IMG/VR virus record: IMGVR_UViG_3300047272_000017
Location: 1 to 25,187 of that record
Source of the DNA: a virus
Taxonomy: Duplodnaviria; Caudoviricetes
Length of the DNA stretch: 25,187 nucleotides
Strand: one strand, 5' to 3'
Positions 11,329 through 25,185 of the stretch are shown here, piece by piece. The notes under the pieces are model-generated. The model ran no database searches and was not told where the DNA came from. It saw only the letters and a list, made by a program, of their open reading frames with translations. Positions within the stretch are counted from its first letter, which is position 1; every line of letters starts with the position of its first letter. A program made the position numbers and the translations under genes.

Positions 11329-11718
11329 TTACCAGCCGGGGCAGTTCCAACGCTGCATTGATGCACGCGCTCTGCTGCCCTTTTCACTTTTCTCTGCAAC
11401 AGGCTCCATTCTCGCGCAAAAAGAGTCGCGTCGGGCACCGCCTTGAGGCTGTGGAGCCTTTAAATTGCTGCCAGTCTCACGGTTGTACTTTGCACGACCT
11501 TTTGCAGTCAAACCAGCGCCCTTGTCCGCAGGCAACTTCTCTCCACGACCAACCGCAAGCGACACGCCACCCTCTTTCATCTTGGCCGTCTTTGCAGACT
11601 CCTTAAATGCTTCGGCGGTGGGCGCACCTTTGCTGCCGACCTTGCGCATCTTCTCTTTCGAGCCTGCTGCGATCCGATCGCGCTTTGCGTTGATGTTGGC
11701 GTAAAGACCGTTGGCCAT
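11329..11718 (-). CDS. Basic two-module hypothetical head-region protein
   Basis: 129 aa, K/R-rich. Module 1 is GLYANINAKR...SAKTAK, module 2 is GLTAKGRAKYNRETGSNLKAP...SFCARM; they are joined by MKEGG. Confidence 0.85.
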   Translation of the reverse strand: MANGLYANINAKRDRIAAGSKEKMRKVGSKGAPTAEAFKESAKTAKMKEGGVSLAVGRGEKLPADKGAGLTAKGRAKYNRETGSNLKAPQPQGGARRDSFCARMEPVAEKSEKGSRARASMQRWNCPGW

Positions 11719-11720
11719 GA

Positions 11721-12164
11721 TTACCAGCAGCTCTTTACTTTGCCGCCATCCTTCTTGCCACGAGAGGCCATCAGTTTTTTGTTGGCTTCTTTGATTTCGC
11801 GCAGCTTGGCCAAAGATCGCTCAATGCCTTCCATTGAAGCACGCTCCTTCTCTGGGTCACGACGCGGCACAACGGGAGCCTTGTAAGGCTCTGCCTTGTA
11901 TGGCTTTGCGTTGATGATTGCATCACGATCAGCTTTTGTGTAGCCACGTGGACGCGCAGGCAGACCAGCCTTTTGACGAGCCTCGTAGTAGTCCGTGTCG
12001 CTGTCGTAATCCATCGGATTAGTCGAGCCACCGATAGCCTTCTTGGATATGCGCTTGGTGTTGTAGGCGATGGCTACTGCCTGCTTCACTGGCTTACCAG
12101 CTTTGACTTCGGTGGAGATGTTCTTCTTGAACGCCTTGTCAGATTTTGATTTGATGAGTGGCAT
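11721..12164 (-). CDS. Basic hypothetical head-region protein (147 aa)
   Basis: Start is probably ATG 12164 (MPLIKSKSDKAFKKNISTEVKAGKPVKQAVAIAY), 2 nt after the upstream stop. Two GG motifs. Confidence 0.85.
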   Translation of the reverse strand: MPLIKSKSDKAFKKNISTEVKAGKPVKQAVAIAYNTKRISKKAIGGSTNPMDYDSDTDYYEARQKAGLPARPRGYTKADRDAIINAKPYKAEPYKAPVVPRRDPEKERASMEGIERSLAKLREIKEANKKLMASRGKKDGGKVKSCW

Positions 12165-12166
12165 AT

Positions 12167-12898
12167 TTAATCCGAGTTCTTGATGAGATAGCCCTCTTGG
12201 GCAACTGCGACTGAACCTGTTCCGCTTTGAATCTTGCACTGAAGCTGAATGTCTGTTTTCTCAAGGAATGGACGAGGCATGATGCGCAAAGCGTCGTAGC
12301 TCATGGCAAATGGCGCTTGCTGCGTCAACTGGACCACACCAGCAGAGCTGATTGTCTTGTTGCGATACGTCACGTAATCGTTGCCATTGAGCGATGTGTA
12401 AATCGCCACGCGCTGCAAGAAGAACGTGTAGCCAGCGGGAACCGTGTAAATGGCAGATTGTGTTCGTCCAACGCCAGTGTTGATCTGAGCGTAGGTAACC
12501 GTTGCGCCTGCATTCTTCAGGTACACGGCACCTGCTGGGTTCGTTGCGCTGCCAGTAGAGACAAACATGCTGTTGATGCGCAAATAGCTGTTGACCGTTG
12601 CAACTGGCGTTGTGCCATTGAGGGTCACCACTTCGCTGATTTGAGCGTAATTGGCATCCAAACCAACAACCGTGATCTTGGCGGTGTCACCGTTGGAGCC
12701 GGACATGTACATGACTGCGGCAGCCGTTGGGTACGTGTAATCAGTGGCGTTCTCCCAAACAGGGATGAAAGTCGTACCGATGGTTGGTTGGTAGCCGTAG
12801 ATGTTGACCGTGCTGTGGCCTTGAATCTGTCCGCGTGCAACCTGCAAGTCAAAAGGCTCGTAAGCCCCTTGACGCGACACTGATGAGTACGTTCCCAT
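12167..12898 (-). CDS. Virion structural protein (beta-rich)
   Basis: 243 aa with FDLQVARGQIQGH, GLDANYAQISEVVTLNG and IYTVPAGYT. Lies among head and neck genes. Confidence 0.75.
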   Translation of the reverse strand: MGTYSSVSRQGAYEPFDLQVARGQIQGHSTVNIYGYQPTIGTTFIPVWENATDYTYPTAAAVMYMSGSNGDTAKITVVGLDANYAQISEVVTLNGTTPVATVNSYLRINSMFVSTGSATNPAGAVYLKNAGATVTYAQINTGVGRTQSAIYTVPAGYTFFLQRVAIYTSLNGNDYVTYRNKTISSAGVVQLTQQAPFAMSYDALRIMPRPFLEKTDIQLQCKIQSGTGSVAVAQEGYLIKNSD

Positions 12899-12902
12899 GG
12901 CT

Positions 12903-13184
12903 TTAGCCGCAGAAGACTGTGATGGTGGCGCTCGTTGGGAGCGTCACGTGGATGTTTGTTGTGAACCGCAGACCGTTGCCGGGGATCAACATTGTGACCA
13001 CGCTGGTGTCGGTTGTGAGGTCGATTGTTGCCACGACTGTGCCGCTTGCGCCGCCGTCACGAAGGACGACTGAGCCTGCTGTGCCGCCGGGCTTGATGTG
13101 GTAGCCAGCCACGTTGGTTGCGCCTGCATACAGAGCACCTGTCGCGCTTGCATAGGCCGAGAATACGTTTGTTAGAGTGCTCAT
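12903..13184 (-). CDS. Small virion structural protein
   Basis: 93 aa, GGAG RBS, all-beta pattern (VVLRDGGASGT...IPGNGLRF). Confidence 0.75.
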   Translation of the reverse strand: MSTLTNVFSAYASATGALYAGATNVAGYHIKPGGTAGSVVLRDGGASGTVVATIDLTTDTSVVTMLIPGNGLRFTTNIHVTLPTSATITVFCG

Positions 13185-13197
13185 GAAAGCTCCAATT

Positions 13198-13222
13198 AAA
13201 AGCAGGGGCCGAAGCCCCTACT
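13198..13222 (-). terminator. Rho-independent terminator
   Basis: Minus strand AGTAGGGGC-TTCG-GCCCCTGCT followed by TTT: a cUUCGg-capped GC stem just after the stop at 13228. Confidence 0.85.
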
Positions 13223-13227
13223 CAGGT

Positions 13228-14295
13228 TTAGCACACCTTGCCGCCGCGCTTCTTTGTGGGAGGCGCAACTGTGACGGACTTTTCAGTCTTGGTCACGCTA
13301 CCAGCGGGATTCATCTTGCCCTTGACAAAGTCACGGATCTTTCCGAAGCCCTCTTTGGCCATGCTGATGGGATTCAGGGCATCTTCAAGCTCACGGCTTG
13401 CTTTGTCCGAAATCGCTTTTGCATCGACCACGTCACCTTCTGCATACTTAGCGACTTTGCCGCCTTTCTTGAAGGTGCCTGATTGCAAGCTGTTGGCCAC
13501 GGGACGTGACACAGGTTTACGTGGCATTGCTACTGCTTTGCCGTCGTCAACCTTACCCCCCGTGGCATAGGCTTTTTTTGCTGAACCGCCTTTTTTGAAG
13601 CCACCAGCATTGCCATTGCGCACGCCACCTGTTGAGGTGCCGCTCACGCCAGCTTTTGCAGTGTCAGCAGGACGGTTTTCCCAATCAACCTTGCCGCCTT
13701 TAGCGAAGCCACCTGCGTTGCTCATTTTGACGCCCTTGGTACCCTTTGCGGTATCAGTCTTGTCGCCATCAACAACTTTGGTGTTGGCAAATTTGCCGAC
13801 GTTGCCTTTGATAGTGCCGCCCATGGCAAAGCCACCAGCATTACTATTCTTGACGCCGCCAGTGCCCTTAGCGCTGTCGTTCTTGTCACCGTCAACCACT
13901 TTAGTCTTGGCGAACTGCTTGACGCTGTTCTTCAAGGTTGTCTTGGTTGAAGCTGAGTCGATCTCACCGCCAGAAGCGAACTTCTTGCCAGCCATTGCCT
14001 TCTTGATCATTGCGCGATCTTGAGCTGCATCTTCGTGCTCTGCCTTACCACCCTTTTTGTAAAGGTTGGGGTTCATAGCGCGACGACGCATGGCCATTGA
14101 AGGCTTCATAGGAGCAGCAGCAGGTGCCATACCGCCACGGGCAGGCATACCAGCAGGCATTTGAGCAGGCATGGATGACTGCATTGGCATGAAGCCACCG
14201 TCAGCCTTACCTTGCACTTTGCCGCCTTTTTTGAGCTTCAGAATAACTGAAGGCTCTGTGGTCATCATTTTGACCATTGGCTTAAATTGACCCAT
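13228..14295 (-). CDS. Highly basic low-complexity protein with ~12 xxGGxV repeats (putative internal head/DNA-binding protein)
   Basis: 355 aa, K/G/A/M-rich, strong AGGAGG RBS, two genes after the MCP. Confidence 0.85.
   Translation of the reverse strand: MGQFKPMVKMMTTEPSVILKLKKGGKVQGKADGGFMPMQSSMPAQMPAGMPARGGMAPAAAPMKPSMAMRRRAMNPNLYKKGGKAEHEDAAQDRAMIKKAMAGKKFASGGEIDSASTKTTLKNSVKQFAKTKVVDGDKNDSAKGTGGVKNSNAGGFAMGGTIKGNVGKFANTKVVDGDKTDTAKGTKGVKMSNAGGFAKGGKVDWENRPADTAKAGVSGTSTGGVRNGNAGGFKKGGSAKKAYATGGKVDDGKAVAMPRKPVSRPVANSLQSGTFKKGGKVAKYAEGDVVDAKAISDKASRELEDALNPISMAKEGFGKIRDFVKGKMNPAGSVTKTEKSVTVAPPTKKRGGKVC
13590..13920 (-). repeat. Intragenic ~41-aa tandem repeat (2 full copies plus 1 partial)
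   Basis: FAKTKVVDGDKNDSAKGTGGVKNSNAGGFAMGG / FANTKVVDGDKTDTAKGTKGVKMSNAGGFAKGG / ..TGGVRNGNAGGFKKGG. Confidence 0.85.
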
Positions 14296-14307
14296 GATGG
14301 CCTCCTA

Positions 14308-15273
14308 TTAGGCTTGAGTTACGCCGAGAGCACCTTGACGCGTAGCGTTAGGGCCGACTTGGATGGCGTTACATGCAATCGTCAAGATCAAGCGGCTGAT
14401 GCCGTTTGTTGCTGAAGATGGAACGTAAGTGCCGCGCACGTCACCAGTTGTGGTGGTAGCAGCAGCCGTAGCAGCAGCAACGAATGTGCCTGCGTCACGA
14501 GCCAGTGTGTTAGCCCAACCAGCGCCAACGATGTAACCAGCGTCAACCACACGAATTGGCAAGCCAATGATGTCGGTTGTGCCAACGGTCACAGCAGTTG
14601 CAGAACCTGCAATCGCCACGTTAGAAACTTGGTAGAAAGCCTTCTTGCCGTTCACGGGAGTGGCAGCAACAGACACTGTGATCACTTCAGACATGGGTTG
14701 ACCGTAGTAGTCATAGCCAGTCACGGTGAATGCACGAGCGGTTGTTGAGCTGTTCACGCTCAGAGCGCGAGGGACGTCCAACTGGATCACGGTAGTGCCA
14801 TCAGAGCGAACCACAGACTTGGCCGATGCGCCAGCAGTCAAAGTCAAGTTGCCAGCGGCAGCAGGAGCTTGAGAAGCGGCAACAGCGGTTGTGCTGAGTG
14901 CTTGAGGGATCACGTCAAACGTGTAAGTGCGGCCAACAGGACCAACGCCCAAAGACATTGGAGATGGATCGCCCAGCAATGAATTGCCAGAAGCAAACAG
15001 GTTGATAGCACCAGTAGCGCTTGAAGAAGCACTCAGGGTGTATGTACCTGCGCCGCCGGAACCAGTACCGAAAGCAGTGATGTACGAACCGGCAGTCACG
15101 CCTGTACCGCCGATGAATTGGCCCAAGACCAAAGCGTCGCCAGACAGTTGAGCTGTCACAGTCATTGTTGTACCAGACACGGAGCCAGCGAACACACCCT
15201 CAACAGGTGATGTGGCCGTACCCATGTACGTTTGGGCTGGACCTAAAAACAGGTCGTCAGAAAATTGAGGCAT
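14308..15273 (-). CDS. Virion structural protein, probable capsid decoration
   Basis: 321 aa, A/T/G/V-rich, AGGAG RBS, immediately after the MCP. Confidence 0.7.
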
Positions 15274-15306
15274 TGATCTTCTCCTTGAAAAGCATGATCA
15301 GGTTTT

Positions 15307-15337
15307 AAAAAGGGAGTGCAGTTTAACTGCACCCCCT
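15307..15337 (-). terminator. Rho-independent terminator after the major capsid gene
   Basis: Minus strand AGGGGGTGCAGT-TAA-ACTGCACTCCCT followed by TTTT. Confidence 0.8.
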
Positions 15338-15345
15338 GTTCGACT

Positions 15346-16260
15346 TTAGACGCCGGGTGTACCGTAGGCACAACGTGGGTCTGTGAAGCCGAGGTCGTAA
15401 CGCTCTGTCGCTTTGTAGCGCATAGAGTCAGTTTCGAAGTCGCCTTCCATGGTCTTCTCCAGACGACGGCGCATCAAGAGCTTGAAGCCCTCTGGTGCAT
15501 CGGTCTGAACCCACCATGCTGTAGAAGAAGTCAAACGTGACAACACAGCAGCGCCTTCGTCCAACAAGCCAATCGCTTTGATTGGGTTGATGTCGTTGTT
15601 AGCGTTGCCAGTGCGGAGCACAGACTTCAACAACACTTCGGCTTGGAAGATGTTGCCGGGAGCCACGATCAATTGACGTGGAACCAAACGGATCTTCTTG
15701 CCGTTGTTGTCAACAGCTTGACGGATCTGGATCAACATTTGCTCAAGCGATGTTTGTGACAACACAGCAGCAGTAGCCAATTGGTTACTGAATGTGCCGT
15801 TCACGATTGGGTGAGCGGTGTTGATCAAGGAGACGCCGTCGCCACCAGCGTAGCTGTTGTTGAAGGCGGTGTTGAGCACGTTAGCGGCCAACAATTCTTT
15901 GGTTTCCACCAAAGATTGAGCCAAGTGGCGTGCATAGACTTGACCGATACGGATGTGATCGCCGTCCTCAACCAACACTTTGGTCAAAGCGAAGGCCAAG
16001 CCATACACTTTGTACACATAGCGCTTCAAGAACAGGACACCACCTTGTTGGTAAGTCACTGGAGTACCGTCGGGCAACTGTGGAGCTGCACCGAAACCGT
16101 AGAGCACGGGCTCTTCGTGGTAGTTACGTGGGATGCCGTCTTCTTCGCGGAACACACGGCTCCACTCGTCGGCACGTTGGTCATAGACTCCGTCGAAACA
16201 TTCGTTGAGGATGGGTTCAACAATCGAACGGAAGTCCGTACTGCGCATTGGGGCTGCCAT
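15346..16260 (-). CDS. Major capsid protein (HK97 fold, Mu gpT-like family)
   Basis: 304 aa with YGFGAAP..PDG, GDGVSLINTAHP, PRQLIVAP and GDFETDSMRYKATERYDLGFTDPR. AAGGAG RBS; followed by a terminator. Confidence 0.9.
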   Translation of the reverse strand: MAAPMRSTDFRSIVEPILNECFDGVYDQRADEWSRVFREEDGIPRNYHEEPVLYGFGAAPQLPDGTPVTYQQGGVLFLKRYVYKVYGLAFALTKVLVEDGDHIRIGQVYARHLAQSLVETKELLAANVLNTAFNNSYAGGDGVSLINTAHPIVNGTFSNQLATAAVLSQTSLEQMLIQIRQAVDNNGKKIRLVPRQLIVAPGNIFQAEVLLKSVLRTGNANNDINPIKAIGLLDEGAAVLSRLTSSTAWWVQTDAPEGFKLLMRRRLEKTMEGDFETDSMRYKATERYDLGFTDPRCAYGTPGV

Positions 16261-16275
16261 TTGTTAGCTCCTTAA

Positions 16276-16890
16276 TTAAACGATAGCTGTCACGCTACCG
16301 AAGTATTGTGAGGAAGCGTTAACGACACGAACGATAACGTAGGCATCACCCCAGTTATTGTCCACATAGGGAGCGATGTCCACAACGCGCATCTGACCTT
16401 GAGCGCCGTTGGCCACAGCAGTAGACACGCCCAAGCAAGTCGAAGACAAGCCAGTAGTGGTAGAGCCAGAGGTCACGGTCAAGCCGGTAGTTGCGGAGAA
16501 GTTGTATTCGCCACCCAGAGATGTCTGAGCAATAGTTGCGTCAGTTTGGATCTCGTACACGATGTTTTGATCGTTGTAGAAGTAAGCAACGCACGAACCA
16601 GTTTGGAACGTAGTGCTGGCAGGCCAGTAGTTGCTAACGCGACGACGACCAGTAGTGTCGGTGTACTCAACGCCAGCGAAAGCGCCAGACCAAACGCCAG
16701 TAGCGGCAGCATTGGTGATGGTACCAGCGGCGACGGATGTACCGGCAGTGCTGTTGTAGCGCACAGGTGCGCCCTTCAAGATGTCAGTGGCGTAGCCAGA
16801 GACGATACCGTTAGCGAGCGCCTGAGCGCGGTCCAAACCGGAGGGATGGAACGCAGGACGCAAGCCGAACGGAGCAGAGGTTGAACTCAT
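16276..16890 (-). CDS. Head protein upstream of the MCP (probable cement/decoration protein)
   Basis: 204 aa with APFGLRP, ILKGAPV and GAFAGVEYTD. Strong AAGGAG RBS; position between scaffold region and MCP. Confidence 0.7.
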   Translation of the reverse strand: MSSTSAPFGLRPAFHPSGLDRAQALANGIVSGYATDILKGAPVRYNSTAGTSVAAGTITNAAATGVWSGAFAGVEYTDTTGRRRVSNYWPASTTFQTGSCVAYFYNDQNIVYEIQTDATIAQTSLGGEYNFSATTGLTVTSGSTTTGLSSTCLGVSTAVANGAQGQMRVVDIAPYVDNNWGDAYVIVRVVNASSQYFGSVTAIV

Positions 16891-16905
16891 GTGAAACTCC
16901 TTTGA

Positions 16906-17454
16906 TTAACCCGAAAATACGGGCAGTTTGCTTGGTTGTTGATCAAAATTGCCAAGACCCTCGCCCTCGACATTCACAAGCGACTTGCCGTTACTGTCAC
17001 GCTGGCCTTGCAGGCTTTCCAACTGGACACGTACTTTTTCAGCCTCTTCACGAGGGAGCTCGTGATGGTGATACAGCATGTGGTCTTGGTAGACATCCAT
17101 TGGCAGTTTGAACAGCAACATCTCGTTGCAAGAAATATACCCAACATGCTCACCGGCTTTCACTCGATAATTTTCATAGCCCGGCAACTCTTCCGACTTA
17201 ACGGGAACGTAACCGAGGCGAATCCTCTTATCAATTGAATCGTAGCTATTGGTTGTCGAAAGCCAGCAAAGGTGCCACCCATCCATGTTGGGCAGTTTTG
17301 GCAATGCTGATTGCGTCCATTCCTCACTCCACATCTTGCGACGTTCCTGTGTCGAAATGAACTTCTCTTCGGGTGCTGCGCGGCTTGCGTCCCCGCTTGC
17401 GCGGTCATTGCGTCCACCAGCATTCAAAGATTTTTTGAGACGTGATTCTGTCAT
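16906..17454 (-). CDS. Conserved head-module hypothetical protein
   Basis: ATG 17454 with GGAG RBS preferred over TTG 17466. Core GWHLCWLSTTNSYDSIDKRIRLGYVPV...EMLLFKLP. Confidence 0.8.
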   Translation of the reverse strand: MTESRLKKSLNAGGRNDRASGDASRAAPEEKFISTQERRKMWSEEWTQSALPKLPNMDGWHLCWLSTTNSYDSIDKRIRLGYVPVKSEELPGYENYRVKAGEHVGYISCNEMLLFKLPMDVYQDHMLYHHHELPREEAEKVRVQLESLQGQRDSNGKSLVNVEGEGLGNFDQQPSKLPVFSG

Positions 17455-17469
17455 GTGATTCTCCAAGTA

Positions 17470-18468
17470 TTAGTTGCGGTTACCGTTTGCACGGTCGTAT
17501 TTAACAAAGCTGTCAATCATTGCTTTCTTGCGCGATGGGTTGTCCCACGCACCAGCTTCTTTCATTGCCTTCACTCGCTCGGGCGACAAAATAAACTGAT
17601 TGCGGTTCGTACCACCGAATGCGCCAGAGGCTTCACGACCTGAGCTTCCCACTACGTTCCTCGGTTTTCTCACAGCAGAATTACTGTCAGTGTTTGTAGT
17701 ATAGCGGTGTGGCATAGCTTTTTGCAAGCGACTATCGAGCTCGTCCCAATAATCTGGGTCTTTTGGATCCCAACCCTCAGTGACCATGGCTTCGTCATGC
17801 TTCTTGGCAATCTGAGCGTCACGATCTGTACTGTTTGGGTCGTACCAAGTATTGCGCTTCATCCACTCGGCAGCGTTGCGTTGAATAGCAGGATCTGGTG
17901 CCTGATATTCGGGCTGGCGCTGTTGAGGTTGACGCAACTCTTGCTCGGCTTGTTGCTTGCGATACTTCAGTTGACCCAAAGCATCTTCAGCTTGACGCCA
18001 CAACGTCTGCGCTTCCACCATGGCTTCGCCGTCTGAATTGGTGGCAGCTTCTGCCAGCTTCATCTTGGCGTATTCAAGGCGGACTTGTTGGTCTTCAATG
18101 TCCTTGTCCATGCGAGAGATGCGACCCTGCTTGGATTCGTTCTCCACATTGGCCAAACGACGCTTGAACTCTTCGTTTTCACGTGCCAACTGCTGCAAGC
18201 GGAGGTCTTTTTCCTCGTTGGTCTTGCGGATCAGGTCTTTCTTGGCACGGCGACGGTTGCGTTTGGCTGCACGCAGCTCTTCACCGTCATCTGGATGGTC
18301 TGCATCGTCGTCGAGTTCGGCTTTGTCGGCTTTTGGCTCATCTTTTGGCTCTTTTGCCTCTTCGATGAAGTCATCACCACCCATGCCGTCGACTAAATCG
18401 ACCACTGCGGAGCCGTCTTGGCCCTCTTCAACGACCAAGTCGTCGGTTTTATCTTGATTTTTGCTCAT
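17470..18468 (-). CDS. Capsid scaffolding protein
   Basis: 332 aa. Acidic N-terminus, long coiled coil, WMKRNTWY...YWDELDSRL, C-terminal ILSPERVKAMKEAG helix. Located between portal and MCP. Confidence 0.8.
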   Translation of the reverse strand: MSKNQDKTDDLVVEEGQDGSAVVDLVDGMGGDDFIEEAKEPKDEPKADKAELDDDADHPDDGEELRAAKRNRRRAKKDLIRKTNEEKDLRLQQLARENEEFKRRLANVENESKQGRISRMDKDIEDQQVRLEYAKMKLAEAATNSDGEAMVEAQTLWRQAEDALGQLKYRKQQAEQELRQPQQRQPEYQAPDPAIQRNAAEWMKRNTWYDPNSTDRDAQIAKKHDEAMVTEGWDPKDPDYWDELDSRLQKAMPHRYTTNTDSNSAVRKPRNVVGSSGREASGAFGGTNRNQFILSPERVKAMKEAGAWDNPSRKKAMIDSFVKYDRANGNRN

Positions 18469-18480
18469 GTTTGTGTCCCT

Positions 18481-18939
18481 TTAGACATAGGCTTTGAACG
18501 AAAGCGGATCGTCTGTGATCTTCGCAATCAATTCGTGGTCGTTGATGGTCATAAACAGCACTGGATCTTCATCCTTGTCTGCACCGGGCACATTACGCTC
18601 CCAGCGATCACCACCCCAGCGTGGTACGCGCACAAAATCACCGATCTGTGCCCAGCTACCCTCTGGCCATGACGTCATCGTGTCGCGGTTCTTGTAAGCC
18701 AAAGGCCCAAAAGCCACGACCTTGCCGATCATGTTGTTCCACTTCTCGTTTTCTTTCGTCTCGTCGACGATGATGATGCGGCCCGACGTCTTTTTGATTC
18801 GACGCAGTTGCACAATCACTCGACCACCCATCGGCGCTTGGCCGGGGTTGACGTCTGGAAACGCCCATGCCAACTCAGCGGGGTCCGATGCTTGCGCACT
18901 TCCCTCGATTGTTGGGATCTTCTCTTTCTCGTCACTCAT
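18481..18939 (-). CDS. groES: GroES-like (Cpn10) co-chaperonin
   Basis: PMGGRVIVQ, KKTSGRIII (mobile loop), GKVVAFGP, QIGDFV and MTINDHELIAKI follow the GroES pattern. ATG 18939 lies 5 nt after AAGGAG. Confidence 0.85.
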   Translation of the reverse strand: MSDEKEKIPTIEGSAQASDPAELAWAFPDVNPGQAPMGGRVIVQLRRIKKTSGRIIIVDETKENEKWNNMIGKVVAFGPLAYKNRDTMTSWPEGSWAQIGDFVRVPRWGGDRWERNVPGADKDEDPVLFMTINDHELIAKITDDPLSFKAYV

Positions 18940-18949
18940 ACTCACTCCT

Positions 18950-19017
18950 TAAACACCATATTGCAGGTGCATCATCAAAGCGCTTTTCAGCGCGGCCTCA
19001 CCCACAGGAGCGTGGGT
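18950..19017 (-). promoter_or_regulatory. Three-hairpin structured leader upstream of groES
   Basis: ACCCAC/GTGGGT, GCGCT-GAAA-AGCGC and GCACC-TGCAATAT-GGTGT fill the intergenic gap up to the RBS. Confidence 0.55.
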
Positions 19018-19199
19018 TAATCTTCTCTGCCTTCGTTCTGCTCCAAGATACGGTCGAGAGCGTCAAGGGCGAACTGAATGCCCTGAGCTTCACCGACCAT
19101 TCGTTGGTAGCCTTCCCAAGAGTGGGCGTTTCCCGAGGCAAGGGAAGACCCGATCTCTTGTTGGCGCAACTTGATCACATGGATCAGTTGGTTGATCAT
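19017..19199 (-). CDS. Small helical hypothetical protein
   Basis: 60 aa with LASGNAHSWEGYQRMVGEAQGI. ATGA-coupled to the upstream ORF; lies between portal and groES. Confidence 0.8.
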   Translation of the reverse strand: MINQLIHVIKLRQQEIGSSLASGNAHSWEGYQRMVGEAQGIQFALDALDRILEQNEGRED

Positions 19200-19342
19200 T
19201 TTTTCTTAGCTTGAGCCAAGCCGCCTTGAGGCTTCTTAGCGTCGCTGCCTTTGAGGCTTTGACCAGTCAGCTTCTCACCCATGGCGAGGCGCTTGTGTTG
19301 GGGCACGTTCACGCCCTTTTGTTCTTGATCAGAAATTGCCAT
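19196..19342 (-). CDS. Small basic hypothetical protein (48 aa)
   Basis: Below the ORF-track cutoff. MAISDQEQKGVNVPQHKRLAMGEKLTGQSLKGSDAKKPQGGLAQAKKK. AGGAG RBS; start overlaps the portal end by 14 nt. Confidence 0.75.
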   Translation of the reverse strand: MAISDQEQKGVNVPQHKRLAMGEKLTGQSLKGSDAKKPQGGLAQAKKK

Positions 19343-21860
19343 TTGGCGCTCCTAGTTGTTGTGGCATACCTTCAGGCATTGCCGGTGGTTGAGGCGCTGC
19401 CATTGGCATTGCCGGTTGACCTGCGCCCATTGTAGGGGCAGGTTGTGGCGTTACCGCCAATTCGTTTGCATGTTGGATCGTTTCGTGAGTCAGTTTCTGA
19501 TTCTCGATGTCGATCTTCGTGTCGTTGTCCATCTTGTGCATCTGGACGTCCGCGAGCAACTTGGCTTGCGCCTCTTGTGCTTTCTGTGCGTCGGCTTGCT
19601 TCTTGCGCTCGGTCTCTGCCATGCTGGTGTCTTTGACGACCTGTGCATCTGGTGGCAACTGACCTTTGGCCGCTTGCTGGCGCTGCTGGGCTTGCTGAAT
19701 GAGCTGCTGGAAGGCTGGAATGAACTGCTCGAACACTTCCTTGGTATCCAACGCTACGTGGCCTCCAACAGCCGTATAGAGCTTGTCAATGGACGCGGTG
19801 AGGGCAGGGTCGTCGTAGTTGTCCACGGGCTTGCCATTCTGCGATTTAGCCACGTAGCCATTCGAACGGTTGAGGTACCACAGCGTCATGTGTTGCTTGA
19901 TGTGTTCGATCAAGTGGTTGAGGTAACCGGGGTCCGCGAATGGCGACTGGCCAAAGAACGGGTTCAAGCCAAACTGCAAGTGGTCTTGGATGTGGGCGAT
20001 GTGATCTTGCTGCATGTACGCATAGGCTGGTTGGCCAATGAGCATTGCGGCGTTCTCGTCTGCCGATGTGCGCTGCTCTGGTGATGGTGTTTCCTTCATC
20101 AGTTCGTTGATGTTGGGCACCTTCATCTGCTTGAGCGAGCGAGACAGCACGGCGTTCATGTTGAACTCTTGCGGGTGCTTGTCGGCCAACTGAATCACAG
20201 CCTGCATCTGAGCCATACGCTGGGTCTCAGAGAAGATGTGTGGATCAGAGACGGGGATCACGTCGGTGTTGCGTGCGAAGTCTTCGCGTGTGATGTCGAG
20301 GTCGGCCACGACTTCAGACTTGCGCATGTCGTCGAAGTGCCAACGGTTCAAGCGGCAAAGGATCTTCAGCACACGTGACTGCGACTCATGCAAGCGTGCA
20401 TGGATGGCAGAGAACACTGACGCGCCTTGTTCGATCAAAGCCTGCGTGGTGCCCACTGGTGCGTTGGCGTTCACGTCGGCGATCTTCTCTTCCGATGTGC
20501 TCACCACGCCCTTGGCGGCATTGTCCAGCCAGCCCAAGAGCTTGAACAGCACTTCGCTTGGTGGGTTGAACGGCATTGGCATGGCGATCTGGCGGATGTC
20601 TTGCACGCCGGGTGCGCCTTCGATCTCAACGATCTGCGTCACTTCCACTTGCTGTGACTGGCCGCTGATCTTCGCGCCCTTGAGCTTCAGCATGGTCGCG
20701 GCGTTGTTGATGTGAGCCGAGTCCATCAAAGCACGCAGGGAGCCCGTCAAAGCGGCACTGAGGCCACCGATCAGGTGAGGCAAGCCAATGGCATAGGCAC
20801 CACGCCATGGGATGAACTTGAACTCGACGATCCAATCCAGCTTGGTCATTGTCTCGTCGGTCTCTTCCCAATTGCGGTACAGGCCCACCACCTCGTTGTC
20901 GAGCTCGTCGATCATCAAGATGTACGGAGCCATCTCGCCTTTGCTGTACTTGTCGTCTTCCAACTCAAGGTAGGTGTAGACGTGGTAGACCTTACGCAGA
21001 CCGTCTTCGTTGTCTTCGTACTGCTTACCTTCGATCTTGTTGTTGGCCTTCTCGACCTTGTTCTGCTCAATGGTGCCAGAGGCTTGCACCATGTTGATGT
21101 CGCGGTACATGCCGCTGGCAATGCGTCGGTTGAACTCCCAATGGGTGATCTCATGCACTTCAGCCGCACGCTGGGCGGTGTAGAAGTTGGTCGCAGCGAA
21201 TGGGAGGATCACGCGGTCGATTGGCAAGAACTCCACGCATGGGCGCTTCTTCTGTTCGTCGAACCAAATCTTGAAATACTGTGAGCCACCCAATGGCAAC
21301 TGAGTCAACAACTGCTCTTGCTCGTCACGGAACTCTTCAATCTGTTCGGTGATCTGCCAATTGAGGTAGTCCTTCTTGCGCTCGGCGCGGTCGGCCTTGA
21401 TGTCGTCCATCTTGCCAAGGATCTTGGTGCGCACAGGACCGTCTGGTGGGTACATCTCTTTGATGGCCTTGGCAGCGAAGTCAACGCAGCCCTCGGCCAT
21501 GGCGGGGTGAACCACCTTAGATGCGCCCATGAAGGTTGCGCCGCCGGGTGCATCGCTGCCCATGCCAGTGCGGCGAATGCCCTCTTCGTATTGCTTGTCG
21601 CGCAGTGATCGCGCTTCTTTGTCCTTTTGCAACAAGTCGATGTAGCGCATCGAAATCTTGTTCAACTCGTAATCGTCGTAGTCCTCTGACATGTTGGCAT
21701 AGAAGTCGGGGTTGACCTCTGGGCCGTCATCTTCCATCGTCACGATGGCCGAGCCGTCTGGCAGCTCTTCAGTGTCAAGATCCACCTCTGGCATGTCGAC
21801 GGCAGCAGAGCCGTCTAGGTTCTCGGTGATCTGTGGGTCTTCTTGATTGAGTTCGTCCAT
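19329..21860 (-). CDS. Portal protein (large, P22-like podoviral type)
   Basis: ~843 aa with FMGASKVVHPAMAE, PPDGPVRT, LPLGGSQYFKIWFD, FIPWRGAYAIGLPHLIGG, APVGTTQALIEQG and IPVSDP, plus a Q-rich C-terminal coil. Start is ATG 21860 or GTG 21863. Confidence 0.9.
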   Translation of the reverse strand: MDELNQEDPQITENLDGSAAVDMPEVDLDTEELPDGSAIVTMEDDGPEVNPDFYANMSEDYDDYELNKISMRYIDLLQKDKEARSLRDKQYEEGIRRTGMGSDAPGGATFMGASKVVHPAMAEGCVDFAAKAIKEMYPPDGPVRTKILGKMDDIKADRAERKKDYLNWQITEQIEEFRDEQEQLLTQLPLGGSQYFKIWFDEQKKRPCVEFLPIDRVILPFAATNFYTAQRAAEVHEITHWEFNRRIASGMYRDINMVQASGTIEQNKVEKANNKIEGKQYEDNEDGLRKVYHVYTYLELEDDKYSKGEMAPYILMIDELDNEVVGLYRNWEETDETMTKLDWIVEFKFIPWRGAYAIGLPHLIGGLSAALTGSLRALMDSAHINNAATMLKLKGAKISGQSQQVEVTQIVEIEGAPGVQDIRQIAMPMPFNPPSEVLFKLLGWLDNAAKGVVSTSEEKIADVNANAPVGTTQALIEQGASVFSAIHARLHESQSRVLKILCRLNRWHFDDMRKSEVVADLDITREDFARNTDVIPVSDPHIFSETQRMAQMQAVIQLADKHPQEFNMNAVLSRSLKQMKVPNINELMKETPSPEQRTSADENAAMLIGQPAYAYMQQDHIAHIQDHLQFGLNPFFGQSPFADPGYLNHLIEHIKQHMTLWYLNRSNGYVAKSQNGKPVDNYDDPALTASIDKLYTAVGGHVALDTKEVFEQFIPAFQQLIQQAQQRQQAAKGQLPPDAQVVKDTSMAETERKKQADAQKAQEAQAKLLADVQMHKMDNDTKIDIENQKLTHETIQHANELAVTPQPAPTMGAGQPAMPMAAPQPPAMPEGMPQQLGAPNGNF

Positions 21861-24100
21861 CACTTGGCCTTTTTGCGTTTATTGCTTAATTCTAAGTTAA
21901 TGGTGTCCATGTCTGCATGCATTTTCACCTTGCCGCCTTTTTTGTAGCCAAGGCGCTTCTTCATGGCTTGCTCATACGCGCCCATTTGATTGATGAACTG
22001 TTCGTCAATCGGTTCGCGGATGATGTTCATCTTGGCTTGGTTGAAGGGCACAACCTTCTTACCCATGGCCGCGATCTCCTTCTTGGCGTTGGCCATAGAG
22101 CGAGGTGCCAGCAAGTCAGCGGGTGTGAGGTACTTCGTCTTGCCCACTAAGCGCGATGGGATGTCGTGGCCATACGTTGGGTGAGGGGAGATGCTTTCCT
22201 TCAGGCTGCGCGATGGGTCGAACTGGATGATAGACGAGCCACCGGCACCAGTCTCGATGTTGCGCAACTCGGGGTGGCTGATCGCGTAGATGATGTCGTC
22301 GAGCTTTTGCTTGCCGCCGGGGAAATACTTCTCTTTACCCAACAAGCCAATGATCTTCTTGCGCATGCCCGAACTCATTTGGCCGTGCAACATCACGTCC
22401 TCTGGGTTCTCAAAGCCGGGGAACTCGGGGTAAGGCACATCGTGCTTGCTTGTCGTAGTCGTCTCTTCACGCATCAAGCGGTTGAGCATGGCGATACGCT
22501 CCATGGGAGACGCATGTGGCTTGTGGTGGGAGATGACCGCGTCGAGCATGTGGACCGCGTGGTTCAACGCCTCGGGCGACATCTTGTGGTAATGGCCATA
22601 GACCTTGCGCTCTGGGTTCTCTTCGGCCAACTTCTTGACCACGTTAAACATGCCAGCGCTTGCGCCCAAGTCACTTGCCCAGCCTTCTGGGTGGCCAAAC
22701 GCGCCATAGTCTTTGCCGCCGTACAGGCCCACGGGCTTGTCCAGCTTCTCGCCACCGATGGACTCAAGGTACTCACCTGCCTTGGGTGCGCCCATGCTCT
22801 TGCCCTTGGTGGGCTTGACACCACCACGGCTTGTATCGCCCGGCACGCCCACGGAGTACGAGTCCTTCAAGTCCTCATAGTTGATCACGGGCACGTCCAT
22901 CTTCTTGGAGCCCTTGATACCCACGGGCAAGTCCTTCTCACGTGCGATCTGTTGCAACGTCTTCTGATTGGGATTGTCCACGCCTTGCATCTGACGGACC
23001 ATGCGCTCGGCCATGGCTTCAATGTCAGCCTGCTTCAGCACTGGCGATGGCTCATAGTGCAAAGACTTCTCGACCTTGCCGCCCTTGGCCAACTGTTGGA
23101 AGTTGTCGATGCTGTAGTTCGTCGCGCCGTTGTCCATGTTCTGGTTGTCAGGCGTGGTGGTCATGCTGCTTGGGTCTTTGATGACCGTGGGCAGTGGACG
23201 TGGCTCAAGGCCACCCTGTGCCAACTGAGGCACGCTAGGCGAGCTTGCAGTGCCGCTTAATTGACTTAGCGTAGTGATGCCACCACCGTCGGCCATCTGA
23301 GGCATTGGTGGCTTCATGGCGGCCATTGCTTGACCTTGGGGCGTCATCTGCAAGATGTTGCTGCCGCCTTGTGGTGGAGGGGCACCAGCGCCACCCAATG
23401 GTGATGGAGCGCCTTGTGGTGCGCCTTCTGGTTGACCTTGAGGTGCAGGCTGTGCCATGTTGGCAGGCATCAGTTGGTTGCCGGGCTGGCCTTTGTTCAT
23501 GTCCACGCCACCCATTGGCAGCGGTTGATCACCCATGCTCACACCACCCACAGGGAATGGGCCTTGGTCGGTGCGCGTCGGTGGCACGAAGGCTTTGATG
23601 TCGAGGCCGGGCGCTTCATTCGCGCCGATGTTGCGCATGTCGTTGAAGTTTGGCTTGGCCTTCTTGACCAATGCTTGCTTCATCTCGTCAAGAGATGGCT
23701 GCACTGCGCCGCCCATGGCCTTCTTGACCACGAAGGGTGTCAGCTTCTTGCCAGTCTTCTCAAGGGTGTGGTAGCCACCGAAGCCAGCCTTCTTGATCGC
23801 GCCAAGGATGCGGGGGTCTTCAATGTGCTTGTAGTTACCAGTGCTCAACACCTCGCCCATCAGCTTGGGGTCGTAGGCTTTGAAGTCTTTGTGCTTGGCG
23901 ACATGGCCAGCGACTGAGCTGACGTGCTCAGGGTTCTCGTAATCGAATGCGTTCACAGTGCCTCCTTCGGCTTTCTTGTTGGCCATTGCCTCTGCGTTGG
24001 CTAGAGCTTGCTTTTGGCGTTGATCTGTCTGAGCTTTCAATGCGAACTCTTGCTTGAGTTGCTCCAGCTTGGCGCGAATGTCGTCGTTGGGTTGGGCCAT
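21860..24100 (-). CDS. Mosaic multi-module protein between terminase and portal (putative internal virion cargo)
   Basis: Start is probably ATG 24100 (GAGG RBS), giving 746 aa. Modules are separated by six xxGGxV motifs; P/Q/G/M-rich linker; ~370-aa globular C-terminal domain. Confidence 0.8.
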   Translation of the reverse strand: MAQPNDDIRAKLEQLKQEFALKAQTDQRQKQALANAEAMANKKAEGGTVNAFDYENPEHVSSVAGHVAKHKDFKAYDPKLMGEVLSTGNYKHIEDPRILGAIKKAGFGGYHTLEKTGKKLTPFVVKKAMGGAVQPSLDEMKQALVKKAKPNFNDMRNIGANEAPGLDIKAFVPPTRTDQGPFPVGGVSMGDQPLPMGGVDMNKGQPGNQLMPANMAQPAPQGQPEGAPQGAPSPLGGAGAPPPQGGSNILQMTPQGQAMAAMKPPMPQMADGGGITTLSQLSGTASSPSVPQLAQGGLEPRPLPTVIKDPSSMTTTPDNQNMDNGATNYSIDNFQQLAKGGKVEKSLHYEPSPVLKQADIEAMAERMVRQMQGVDNPNQKTLQQIAREKDLPVGIKGSKKMDVPVINYEDLKDSYSVGVPGDTSRGGVKPTKGKSMGAPKAGEYLESIGGEKLDKPVGLYGGKDYGAFGHPEGWASDLGASAGMFNVVKKLAEENPERKVYGHYHKMSPEALNHAVHMLDAVISHHKPHASPMERIAMLNRLMREETTTTSKHDVPYPEFPGFENPEDVMLHGQMSSGMRKKIIGLLGKEKYFPGGKQKLDDIIYAISHPELRNIETGAGGSSIIQFDPSRSLKESISPHPTYGHDIPSRLVGKTKYLTPADLLAPRSMANAKKEIAAMGKKVVPFNQAKMNIIREPIDEQFINQMGAYEQAMKKRLGYKKGGKVKMHADMDTINLELSNKRKKAK

Positions 24101-24201: not shown

Positions 24202-25185
24202 TTACACAGCGTAAGGGTTGGTGCTCTCACGTTTGTTGTACTCGTTCGCATCCAAGATGTCGTCTTCGTCAAGGTCGTCCCGTGGTGGGGCGTCGATGCT
24301 GATCCATCCATAGTCACGCAGGTAGCGCAGTCCCTGTGAGATGCAGTCGACGAACTCGTCATGCACTGTGCCCTCTGGGAACGAGCAAATCTGGCTGACC
24401 ATACCTTCGGCCCAATCTTTGACGTAACCCTTGTTCACGCTGCTCTCAGGCACCCACACGCGGCCAGCACGGATGATGTTGGCCACGATGCTCAGGCGTT
24501 GGACCTTGTCAGCCCTGCCGGGGTTGTAGGCGTGGACGGGCAGGTGAGCCTGACGCAAGTCTTGCAGCAGGGAGATGCCAGCGCTCTTGTCCTCAATCAG
24601 CAGCAGGTCGACCCGCTTCTTCTCTTTGCCGTCGCCGTACACCACCTCGAACTCGTCGATCACCTTGGGGCGGAGCTGGGGATACTGAAGGTGCTCTTGC
24701 CAGCAGTCGATGATCATCACGCACATGCCGCCATCCAATGGCTTGAACACGCCCATGGTGATGCAGCCTGTCGGGTCGTTGTGCGTCTTGTCTGACGTGG
24801 CGCAGTCGTAGGACTGAATGATGTACTCGAACTTGGGGAAGGCGCGGCCATTAGGCCACAGCTTGAACCAATCGCGCTTGACGATACCGCCCTCTTCAGG
24901 GTCGATGATCTCGGCGTAAATCTCTTGGCGGCCCAGCTTCGTGCCCTCGTACTGAAGGATCTGCTTCTGGAACGATGCGGCCAAGTTGGCCACGTTCACG
25001 TAGGTGGACGCCTTGGTCACCACCACGTCGTCGCCTTCGCGGTCGATCAGGTCCATCACCAGCGGCTTGGGCTTGGGCGTGGTAGACGCAATGATCTTGG
25101 TCTTAGACCCCAAGCGCACGGCGAACATGATCATGTCCCACGCTTCTTGCAGGTAGTCCCATGCGGCCAGCTCGTCTAGCCATGC
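24202..25185 (-). CDS. terL: Terminase large subunit, 5'-truncated
   Basis: The frame stays open past the track start to the window edge (AWLDELAAW, Walker B). Coupling motif STTP; RNase H-like nuclease motifs QSYDCA, IEDKSAG and HDEFVD. Confidence 0.93.
   Translation of the reverse strand, partial: AWLDELAAWDYLQEAWDMIMFAVRLGSKTKIIASTTPKPKPLVMDLIDREGDDVVVTKASTYVNVANLAASFQKQILQYEGTKLGRQEIYAEIIDPEEGGIVKRDWFKLWPNGRAFPKFEYIIQSYDCATSDKTHNDPTGCITMGVFKPLDGGMCVMIIDCWQEHLQYPQLRPKVIDEFEVVYGDGKEKKRVDLLLIEDKSAGISLLQDLRQAHLPVHAYNPGRADKVQRLSIVANIIRAGRVWVPESSVNKGYVKDWAEGMVSQICSFPEGTVHDEFVDCISQGLRYLRDYGWISIDAPPRDDLDEDDILDANEYNKRESTNPYAV

Follow-up and report, generated by a model that had tools for sequence, protein, structure and literature searches.

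A Gly-Gly tag at the seams and tails of unrelated, probably head-carried proteins in a group of freshwater podophages

The DNA analyzed here, called the window, is the whole 25-kb contig (25,187 nucleotides) of the virus record IMGVR_UViG_3300047272_000017, whose genes are read on the minus strand, as are all the features given below. It belongs to an HTVC023P/Caulobacter-RW-like podophage, a short-tailed phage of freshwater. Four of its proteins, unrelated to one another and probably carried in the head, bear a portable Gly-Gly tag at module junctions and C-termini, a pattern that is supported statistically. The tag is restricted to a small set of genes, sits at the seams and tails of their products, and is conserved in related phages. 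As we would define it, it spans seven residues: an aromatic residue, Met, Leu or Lys; Ala or Lys; any residue; two glycines; any residue; and Val, Ala or Ile. The explanation that we prefer, to which we give about an even chance, is that the tag serves in docking or packaging, is not cut at its glycines, and delivers its carriers to the head during assembly, to be stored there and later injected.

Scanned with the core pattern [FYMLKH][AK]xGG, the 32 open reading frames (ORFs) of the window yield 19 copies, all in four minus-strand ORFs. The remaining 28, including those of the major capsid protein (MCP), portal and scaffold, have none. The initial annotation had spoken of about 20 copies in these four proteins, which the core pattern bears out; the literal pattern [FYMLK][AK]xGGx[VI], by which it had also been described, matches only 13. 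There is one copy in a protein of 129 amino acids (aa), two in a 147-aa protein, 10 in a 355-aa protein and six in a 746-aa protein. The 355-aa protein had been credited with about 12, but of these YAEGDVV has G-D in place of Gly-Gly and ARGGM falls outside the pattern. Composition-matched shuffles are expected to give 0.12, 0.05, 0.59 and 0.42 copies, respectively, and none of 2000 shuffles equalled the tag count of the 355-aa or of the 746-aa protein. The excess over shuffles also holds for the 147-aa protein (scanned as a 172-aa ORF; p = 0.001), but the one copy in the 129-aa protein does not by itself reach significance (p = 0.12). That the four share nothing else visible agrees with BLASTP among them, which finds only weak, short matches (best E 0.019, over 20 aa) that overlap the tags. 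Since the core pattern was fitted to the window itself, out-of-sample tests in related loci weigh more.

The ORFs on the coding strand of 80 related loci (487,477 aa) contain 1157 copies, and those on the opposite strand (392,528 aa) contain 38. Tags are found in all 69 homologues of the 355-aa protein and all 37 of the 746-aa protein, in 47 of 61 for the 129-aa protein and in 12 of 16 for the 147-aa protein. They are absent from the relatives' MCP (0/80) and GroES (0/61); the absence from portal and scaffold that was claimed for the window is true of the window, with occasional tagging in relatives (2/68 and 9/70). Five complete relatives hold 21-28 tags in 4-8 ORFs, where shuffles average 4.4-6.8, and almost all are in late genes. 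A small number of the copies are poly-Gly runs of fibre genes, and two are in the replication genes of one genome (G005). The second residue past the glycines, which the pattern leaves free, is Val, Ala or Ile in 70% of cases. Tandem tags are common, with 244 of 882 spacings measuring 2-13 aa. The first Gly codon (n = 1062) is GGC in 484 cases, GGT in 464, GGA in 58 and GGG in 56, and both Gly codons vary freely; the motif is therefore a feature of the protein and not a DNA repeat. An origin as a Shine-Dalgarno sequence or DNA repeat is ruled out on the same grounds. A genome-specific dialect of the tag, seen as His beside it, was also considered. Here rho is 0.46 in 41 loci, but the covariation of background His is as strong (rho 0.51), which makes the correlation uninformative.

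The positions of the tag within proteins were compared with the limits of homology. A set of 51 tagged proteins of at least 300 aa, taken as unmasked sequences, has 179 internal homology ends, of which 89 are no more than 15 aa from a tag. Random placement gives 19.4 (maximum 32 in 500) and randomly placed masks attract only 7-9; because related proteins are not independent, the size of this effect is solid but its p-value is not exact. The placement at module junctions thus stands, and so does that near C-termini: of 170 complete ORFs outside the array family, 79 have their last tag at most 25 aa from the stop, where 36.3 would be expected. Among tagged ORFs of at most 100 aa the figure is 20 of 23, about three of the 23 being possibly spurious ORFs, and in 44 of 251 ORFs a tag lies 1-6 residues from the stop. 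Unrelated small modules share one ending, made of a tag, a short basic tail and CW or NW. Trp ends the chain in 37 of the 64 small proteins with tags and in none of 711 without; Cys is final in 36 of 60 members of the 355-aa family and in one of the 711. The window's own termini conform: SCW in the 147-aa, PGW in the 129-aa and KVC in the 355-aa protein. A targeting signal would be expected to look like this, with a common terminal peptide grafted onto small proteins of unrelated kinds.

Three classes of gene carry the tag: those of polyvalent proteins between terminase and portal, those of small basic proteins and of a tag-array protein past the capsid gene, and that of the first ejection protein. 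In the window, the terminase-portal slot, where relatives encode polyvalent proteins, is occupied by the modular 746-aa protein (21860..24100), with tags at 23960-23974, 23708-23722, 23282-23296, 23210-23224, 23078-23092 and 21932-21946. It has the polyvalent features of being multidomain, late, located between terL and portal, and built of exchangeable modules: residues 50-134, 134-257 and 347-720 are found separately in relatives, in blocks that start just behind tags. Library scans detected no named polyvalent domain (ART-PolyVal and others) in it, and ESM Atlas gave no named family for residues 345-720. Eleven slot proteins of relatives were scanned, and ART-PolyVal was found in three, GP88 in four, ASCH in two and DUF7178 in one, with tags about 10 residues past the ART domains. 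Judged by sequence, the slot proteins look like polyvalent proteins. The basic 147-aa protein (11721..12164) consists of an N-terminal module of about 42 aa (PHROG 2423), a tag (KAIGG, 12027-12041), a variable part, and a second tag (KKDGG, 11742-11756) ahead of its end. The 129-aa protein (11329..11718), also basic, has a module of about 46 aa (PHROG 16028), its tag (MKEGG, 11566-11580), a DUF6321 module and the terminal Trp.

The 355-aa protein (13228..14295) is a basic, Gly/Lys/Ala-rich tag array with no Pfam or PHROG match. It opens with tandem tags, LKKGG (14221-14235) and KADGG (14194-14208), followed by YKKGG (14047-14061), FASGG (13966-13980), FAMGG (13816-13830) and FAKGG (13693-13707). 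A second tandem pair, FKKGG (13585-13599) and YATGG (13555-13569), flanks a slippery heptamer; FKKGG (13459-13473), with the variant YAEGD directly after it, and the C-terminal KKRGG (13240-13254) complete the series. A -1 frameshift is predicted from the sequence at the heptamer, A_AAA_AAA, at codon 240 (13573-13579). It is slippery in all 54 genes with the site (53 homologues and the window); among 540 other Lys-Lys pairs, 26 are slippery. In 33 of the 54, where hairpins are stronger (mean -24.3 vs. -11.8 kcal/mol), the -1 frame terminates in [SA][LF]RxGGxC. In the window the -1 frame reads SLCHGG before a stop at 13553-13555, and the hairpin is weak (-9.6 kcal/mol); in three relatives, as in the window, the Cys of the -1 tail has moved upstream. 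Both the zero-frame and the predicted -1 product tend to hold one Cys near the C-terminus. The frameshift site favors the codon GGG (45/54 vs. 8/688), a bias that may benefit either the hairpin or the alternative tail.

The tag reaches beyond accessory proteins. In relatives, 26 of 28 first proteins of the ejection locus are tagged, and their C-terminal domain, with the tag ahead of it, was found in seven of 12 reference phage sets, several of the sets being partial. Tag counts by profile in these seven (with shuffle maxima in brackets) are 20 (6) in MW202545, 4 (4) in RW, 11 (5) in MW202675, 5 (3) in MinM2, 10 (6) in DSL-LC04, 4 (5) in F116 and 6 (5) in HTVC023P, and each set has tags on late proteins. 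The four copies of F116 are all in p58, p59 and p60, the last of which is a listed homologue of IVP-D (PMC4819975). The sets without the domain have few tags: none in CRP-901, one in QDWS535 and two each in MW202796 and MW202785, while in JC1, also without it and included for its virion mass spectrometry, 26 of 27 late ORFs lack tags and two incidental matches lie in the 4515-aa DarB. Farther afield, gp45 of crAss001 is a virion cargo protein bound to the portal wing through residues 425-552 (PMC10172136). Read by eye, it has about eight x-A-x-G-G-type copies, of which the tag profile scores only the terminal KAKGGKV; the portal-bound segment starts with AFGGW at 425, and the Gly-Gly at 425-428 is modelled intact. 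In lambda gpH (L086), FATGG (733-737) and YATGG (778-782) lie near the C-terminus, near the region of gpH cleavage.

Some features of the ejection proteins are recorded here as observations. The C-terminal domain is duplicated in the tag-rich group and single in RW, which has no accessory tagged proteins (comparison of L099:5857-6351 with L082:22070-23812). Ejection proteins often begin with Met-Gly. Several relatives (L081:14980-15924; also L127, L149, L158 and L163) have a ketoacyl-synthase-like gene that separates the nozzle gene from the first gene for an ejection protein, and next to it, at L081:16077-16358, is a 93-aa gene that by eye is acyl-carrier-like. Lipidation of the ejection proteins is possible. 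Those of MW202545 (L081:11375-14536) have long Cys-rich runs (CCSCCC...), of which none was seen in RW.

What might read the tag? Since the capsid proteins of tag-bearing phages differ widely, they are less likely to be the reader. The candidate that we favor is an assembly close to the portal, built around the first ejection protein; the conserved C-terminal domain of that protein co-occurs with tags. The model of this domain has a predicted local distance difference test (pLDDT) score of 69.9; it has no Foldseek match, a best fold-search Z of 3.4 and no PDB sequence match. By hhalign its similarity to lambda gpH is not significant (E 0.017, probability 2.6%), and PF25725 (crAss_CARG1), the family of gp45, matches neither the window proteins nor the relatives' ejection proteins. 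A complex prediction of the domain with residues 190-291 of the 355-aa protein scored 0.00 and is informative neither way. The conserved head-module protein at 16906..17466 is modelled confidently (pLDDT 85.5) and has 409 representatives at 50% clustering, but as a protease or reader it is unsupported: it has no protease fold match and is present in the tagless CRP-901. Foldseek found no match for it at E 0.001, the best VIA Z was 5.2, on a long helix only, and ESM Atlas named no family.

In the mechanism that we propose, the tag would mark swappable accessory proteins and the first ejection protein for loading into the head. A small module would gain access to the head by carrying the tag, often as a C-terminal tag followed by a basic tail and Trp or Cys, and the seams of polyvalent proteins would owe their tags to the fusion of modules that already had them. 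The 355-aa protein may then be a multivalent, DNA-facing core or spacer protein. Several points weigh against this reading. Gene position and analogy are what suggest that the tagged proteins are head cargo, and the related loci and proteins are non-independent samples. The second to fourth genes of the ejection locus are mostly untagged, as are gp46 and gp49 of crAss001 and gp7, gp20 and gp16 of P22; the tag is therefore not required for all cargo. In RW and F116 the tag counts of the whole set do not exceed the shuffle maxima. Homology of the ejection-protein domain with the portal-bound domain of gp45 is not supported (hhalign probability 0.1%). Other points lend themselves to proteolysis: the enrichment at seams fits cleavage equally well, the gp45 density begins at the Ala of its tag, and 105 of 137 ORFs in two complete relatives have no Pfam match, which leaves room for an unrecognized phage protease, a host protease being likewise possible.

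A bolder form of the proposal, possible but on balance doubtful, is that tailed phages of a wide range (the present freshwater group, HTVC023P-, F116- and crAss-like podophages, perhaps even siphophage tape measures) share one ancient, undescribed Gly-Gly code, read by the first ejection protein at the portal. Any gene that acquired the tag would have its product packed and injected ahead of the DNA, in a plug-and-play delivery of effectors tuned by the frameshifted, multivalent array protein.

The strongest alternative, unlikely as we judge it but a serious contender, is that the tag is a protease site that frees the modules of a polyprotein in the prohead or after injection. The cut would fall after Gly-Gly or, more likely, before Ala/Lys-x-Gly-Gly, and would be made by a host or unrecognized phage enzyme, possibly after the tag had first played a role in targeting. 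Besides the clustering of homology ends, it is favored by tags that bracket ART, ASCH and GP88 domains and by a small module that directly follows a tag in 15 of 30 cases and in the others often starts at Met. Lambda gpH loses a C-terminal piece of about 14 kDa whose cut site is unmapped (PMC12617516), but a cut at FATGG would release 12.2-12.3 kDa. In P22 gp7 the host protease OpdA removes 20 residues (a database record note) and exposes KGGKGG, which does not match the tag pattern. The intact Gly-Gly in virion gp45 argues against a cut after the glycines of that one copy, but since the density begins at the tag's Ala, a cut just before A-x-G-G remains compatible. Many tags lie a few residues from the stop or in tandem, where cutting would free only trivial pieces. 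No peptidase family was found among the 137 ORFs of at least 70 aa (158 called) of two complete relatives, G001 and G004, most of which lack any Pfam match, as noted; the Ulp1/adenain- or C39-like protease that had been envisaged was not among the families seen. Nor did the slot proteins scanned match zincin MPTase or any other Pfam peptidase. The original idea of a portable tag for docking or cleavage is thus best served by its docking half, the maturation-cleavage half having gained no positive support.

It is quite unlikely, in our view, that the tags are low-affinity stickers that bind each other or DNA and condense the basic, disordered 355-aa protein and tagged clients into a core with no dedicated reader. 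The array family has a composition suited to this (Gly 14.7%, Lys 14.1%, net charge +8.8 per 100 aa) and a tag number that varies from about 8 to 16, and the tag region of the ejection protein is modelled with low confidence (pLDDT <50 at residues 1-15 and 22-47). Small proteins with a single tag, together with the fixed C-terminal Trp, suggest instead a defined binding pocket, and the aromatic first residue is replaced by Lys in 22% of tags. Less probable still is a flexible linker spread by recombination, with microhomology for module swaps and no role at the protein level. Module exchange does occur at tags, but the residues are kept while synonymous codons vary, the motif recurs in crAss001, F116 and lambda proteins, and C-terminal copies have nothing to join. 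Bacterial ubiquitin-like proteins end in Gly-Gly, and host conjugation and deconjugation systems exist, but that the tags act as decoys or substrates for such enzymes is very improbable: Gly-Gly does stand at or near C-termini, that of the predicted -1 product included, yet most tags are internal, the residues past Gly-Gly are conserved, and no such enzyme family is found among the 137 ORFs.

Along the minus strand, the genes of the window follow this order: terminase, the 746-aa protein, portal, GroES, probable scaffold, two conserved head proteins and capsid protein, then the 355-aa protein, small genes, adaptors, fibres and lysis genes. The C-terminal part of the terminase large subunit (24202..25134; Pfam/PHROG-type library matches) bounds the cargo slot. 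The portal (19329..21863; PHROG), untagged in the window, is a possible anchor, and the MCP (15346..16260; library matches and motif scan), also untagged, is still a possible candidate reader. The scaffold (17470..18468; PHROG 28737, of unknown function) is probable by position and composition. Between portal and scaffold lies a GroES-like co-chaperonin (18481-18945); GroES is a core gene of HTVC023P-type phages, for which eight unannotated core genes are listed with no Gly-Gly motif mentioned in the portion of the source consulted (PMC9599517). Behind the portal is an unlisted basic ORF of 48 aa (19196-19342) with the terminus PQGGLAQAKKK, where 5 of 51 homologues have a full tag. The capsid protein is 96% identical to that of MW202545, 77% to that of Caulobacter phage RW and 42-43% to those of CRP-901 and HTVC023P. 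Complete relatives, of which the window would correspond to a fragment, are 53-57 kb long, with a P22-like nozzle and ejection block, and four of seven matches to metagenome-assembled genomes hint weakly at betaproteobacterial hosts.

A second shared motif, DG[SG][AV]x[VI], was seen in the acidic N-termini of portal and scaffold. The portal has two N-terminal DGSAxV/I copies (21798-21815 and 21741-21758) and the scaffold one DGSAVV (18400-18417). In relatives, 45 of the 54 portals have it, as do 45 of the 64 scaffolds, and other named families show four copies in 209,293 aa. The motif is possibly a shared signal for assembly docking.

Outside T4, how podophages select and load their internal proteins is poorly understood. 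If the proposal is true, the sequence of a seven-residue tag would allow virion cargo to be predicted in a group of phages that is very abundant (the tool estimates that about 2300 IMG/VR stretches match the capsid gene). It would also account for polyvalent proteins that acquire or shed enzyme domains and are packaged all the same. The tag might also act as a loading signal for engineered phage particles. The cultured carriers Caulobacter RW, F116, HTVC023P and crAss001 make the question testable. New here are the test of seams against controls, the extension of the tag to a C-terminal Trp or Cys, its joint occurrence with the ejection-protein domain, and the recognition of F116 and RW as cultured carriers. 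No published description of the tag was found in a literature search that left most subscription papers and supplements outside its reach, and the accessible parts of PMC10386132 and PMC8954989 contain nothing on a Gly-Gly motif.

Among known systems, the capsid targeting sequence (CTS) of T4 internal proteins IPI-III is likewise a short peptide common to unrelated, swappable, basic internal proteins, and it has been proposed to let related phages load varied cargo (PMC9026906). It is a single N-terminal 10-mer that the prohead protease gp21 removes after L/I-x-E (PMC9026906), whereas the present tag is internal or C-terminal, multicopy and based on Gly-Gly, with no prohead protease recognized among the 137 ORFs. 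The slot proteins resemble polyvalent proteins as multidomain late proteins beside portal and terminase genes; for these, processing by built-in zincin metallopeptidases was proposed, of which none was detected in the slot proteins here, and the word 'glycine' is absent from the main text as available (PMC5512222). Closer in layout is crAss001 gp45 (cargo protein C1, PF25725), the product of the first gene past the nozzle, whose small basic modules are split by x-A-x-G-G and whose terminus is KAKGGKV. It was shown in virions, bound to the portal wing, with no motif or cleavage mentioned in the part of the source at hand (PMC10172136). In crAss001 tags are mostly in one protein, whereas here they are spread over several genes. 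Lambda gpH has two [FY]ATGG copies that bracket a small GEFV-containing segment behind a Gly-rich stretch, as in the ejection proteins, but it is a tail-lumen protein of a siphophage, and relatedness is only suggestive.

Peptidases of adenovirus, African swine fever virus, Ulp1 and C39 type cut basic core-like substrates at Gly-Gly maturation sites with an upstream hydrophobic residue (L-x-G-G). The tag shares the Gly-Gly core, the upstream hydrophobic residue and the basic, core-like carriers, but its hydrophobic residue is one place further upstream and its downstream side is conserved too. Encapsulins, whose shell has the HK97 fold, load unrelated cargo by means of short peptides that are not cut and often sit at the C-terminus; the sequence of these loading peptides differs from that of the tag. 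The Gly-Gly tag is real and so far undescribed, and would be a signal of the targeting type. The best match to its proposed mode of action is the T4 CTS, from which it departs in not being a single N-terminal propeptide, or the loading peptides of encapsulins.

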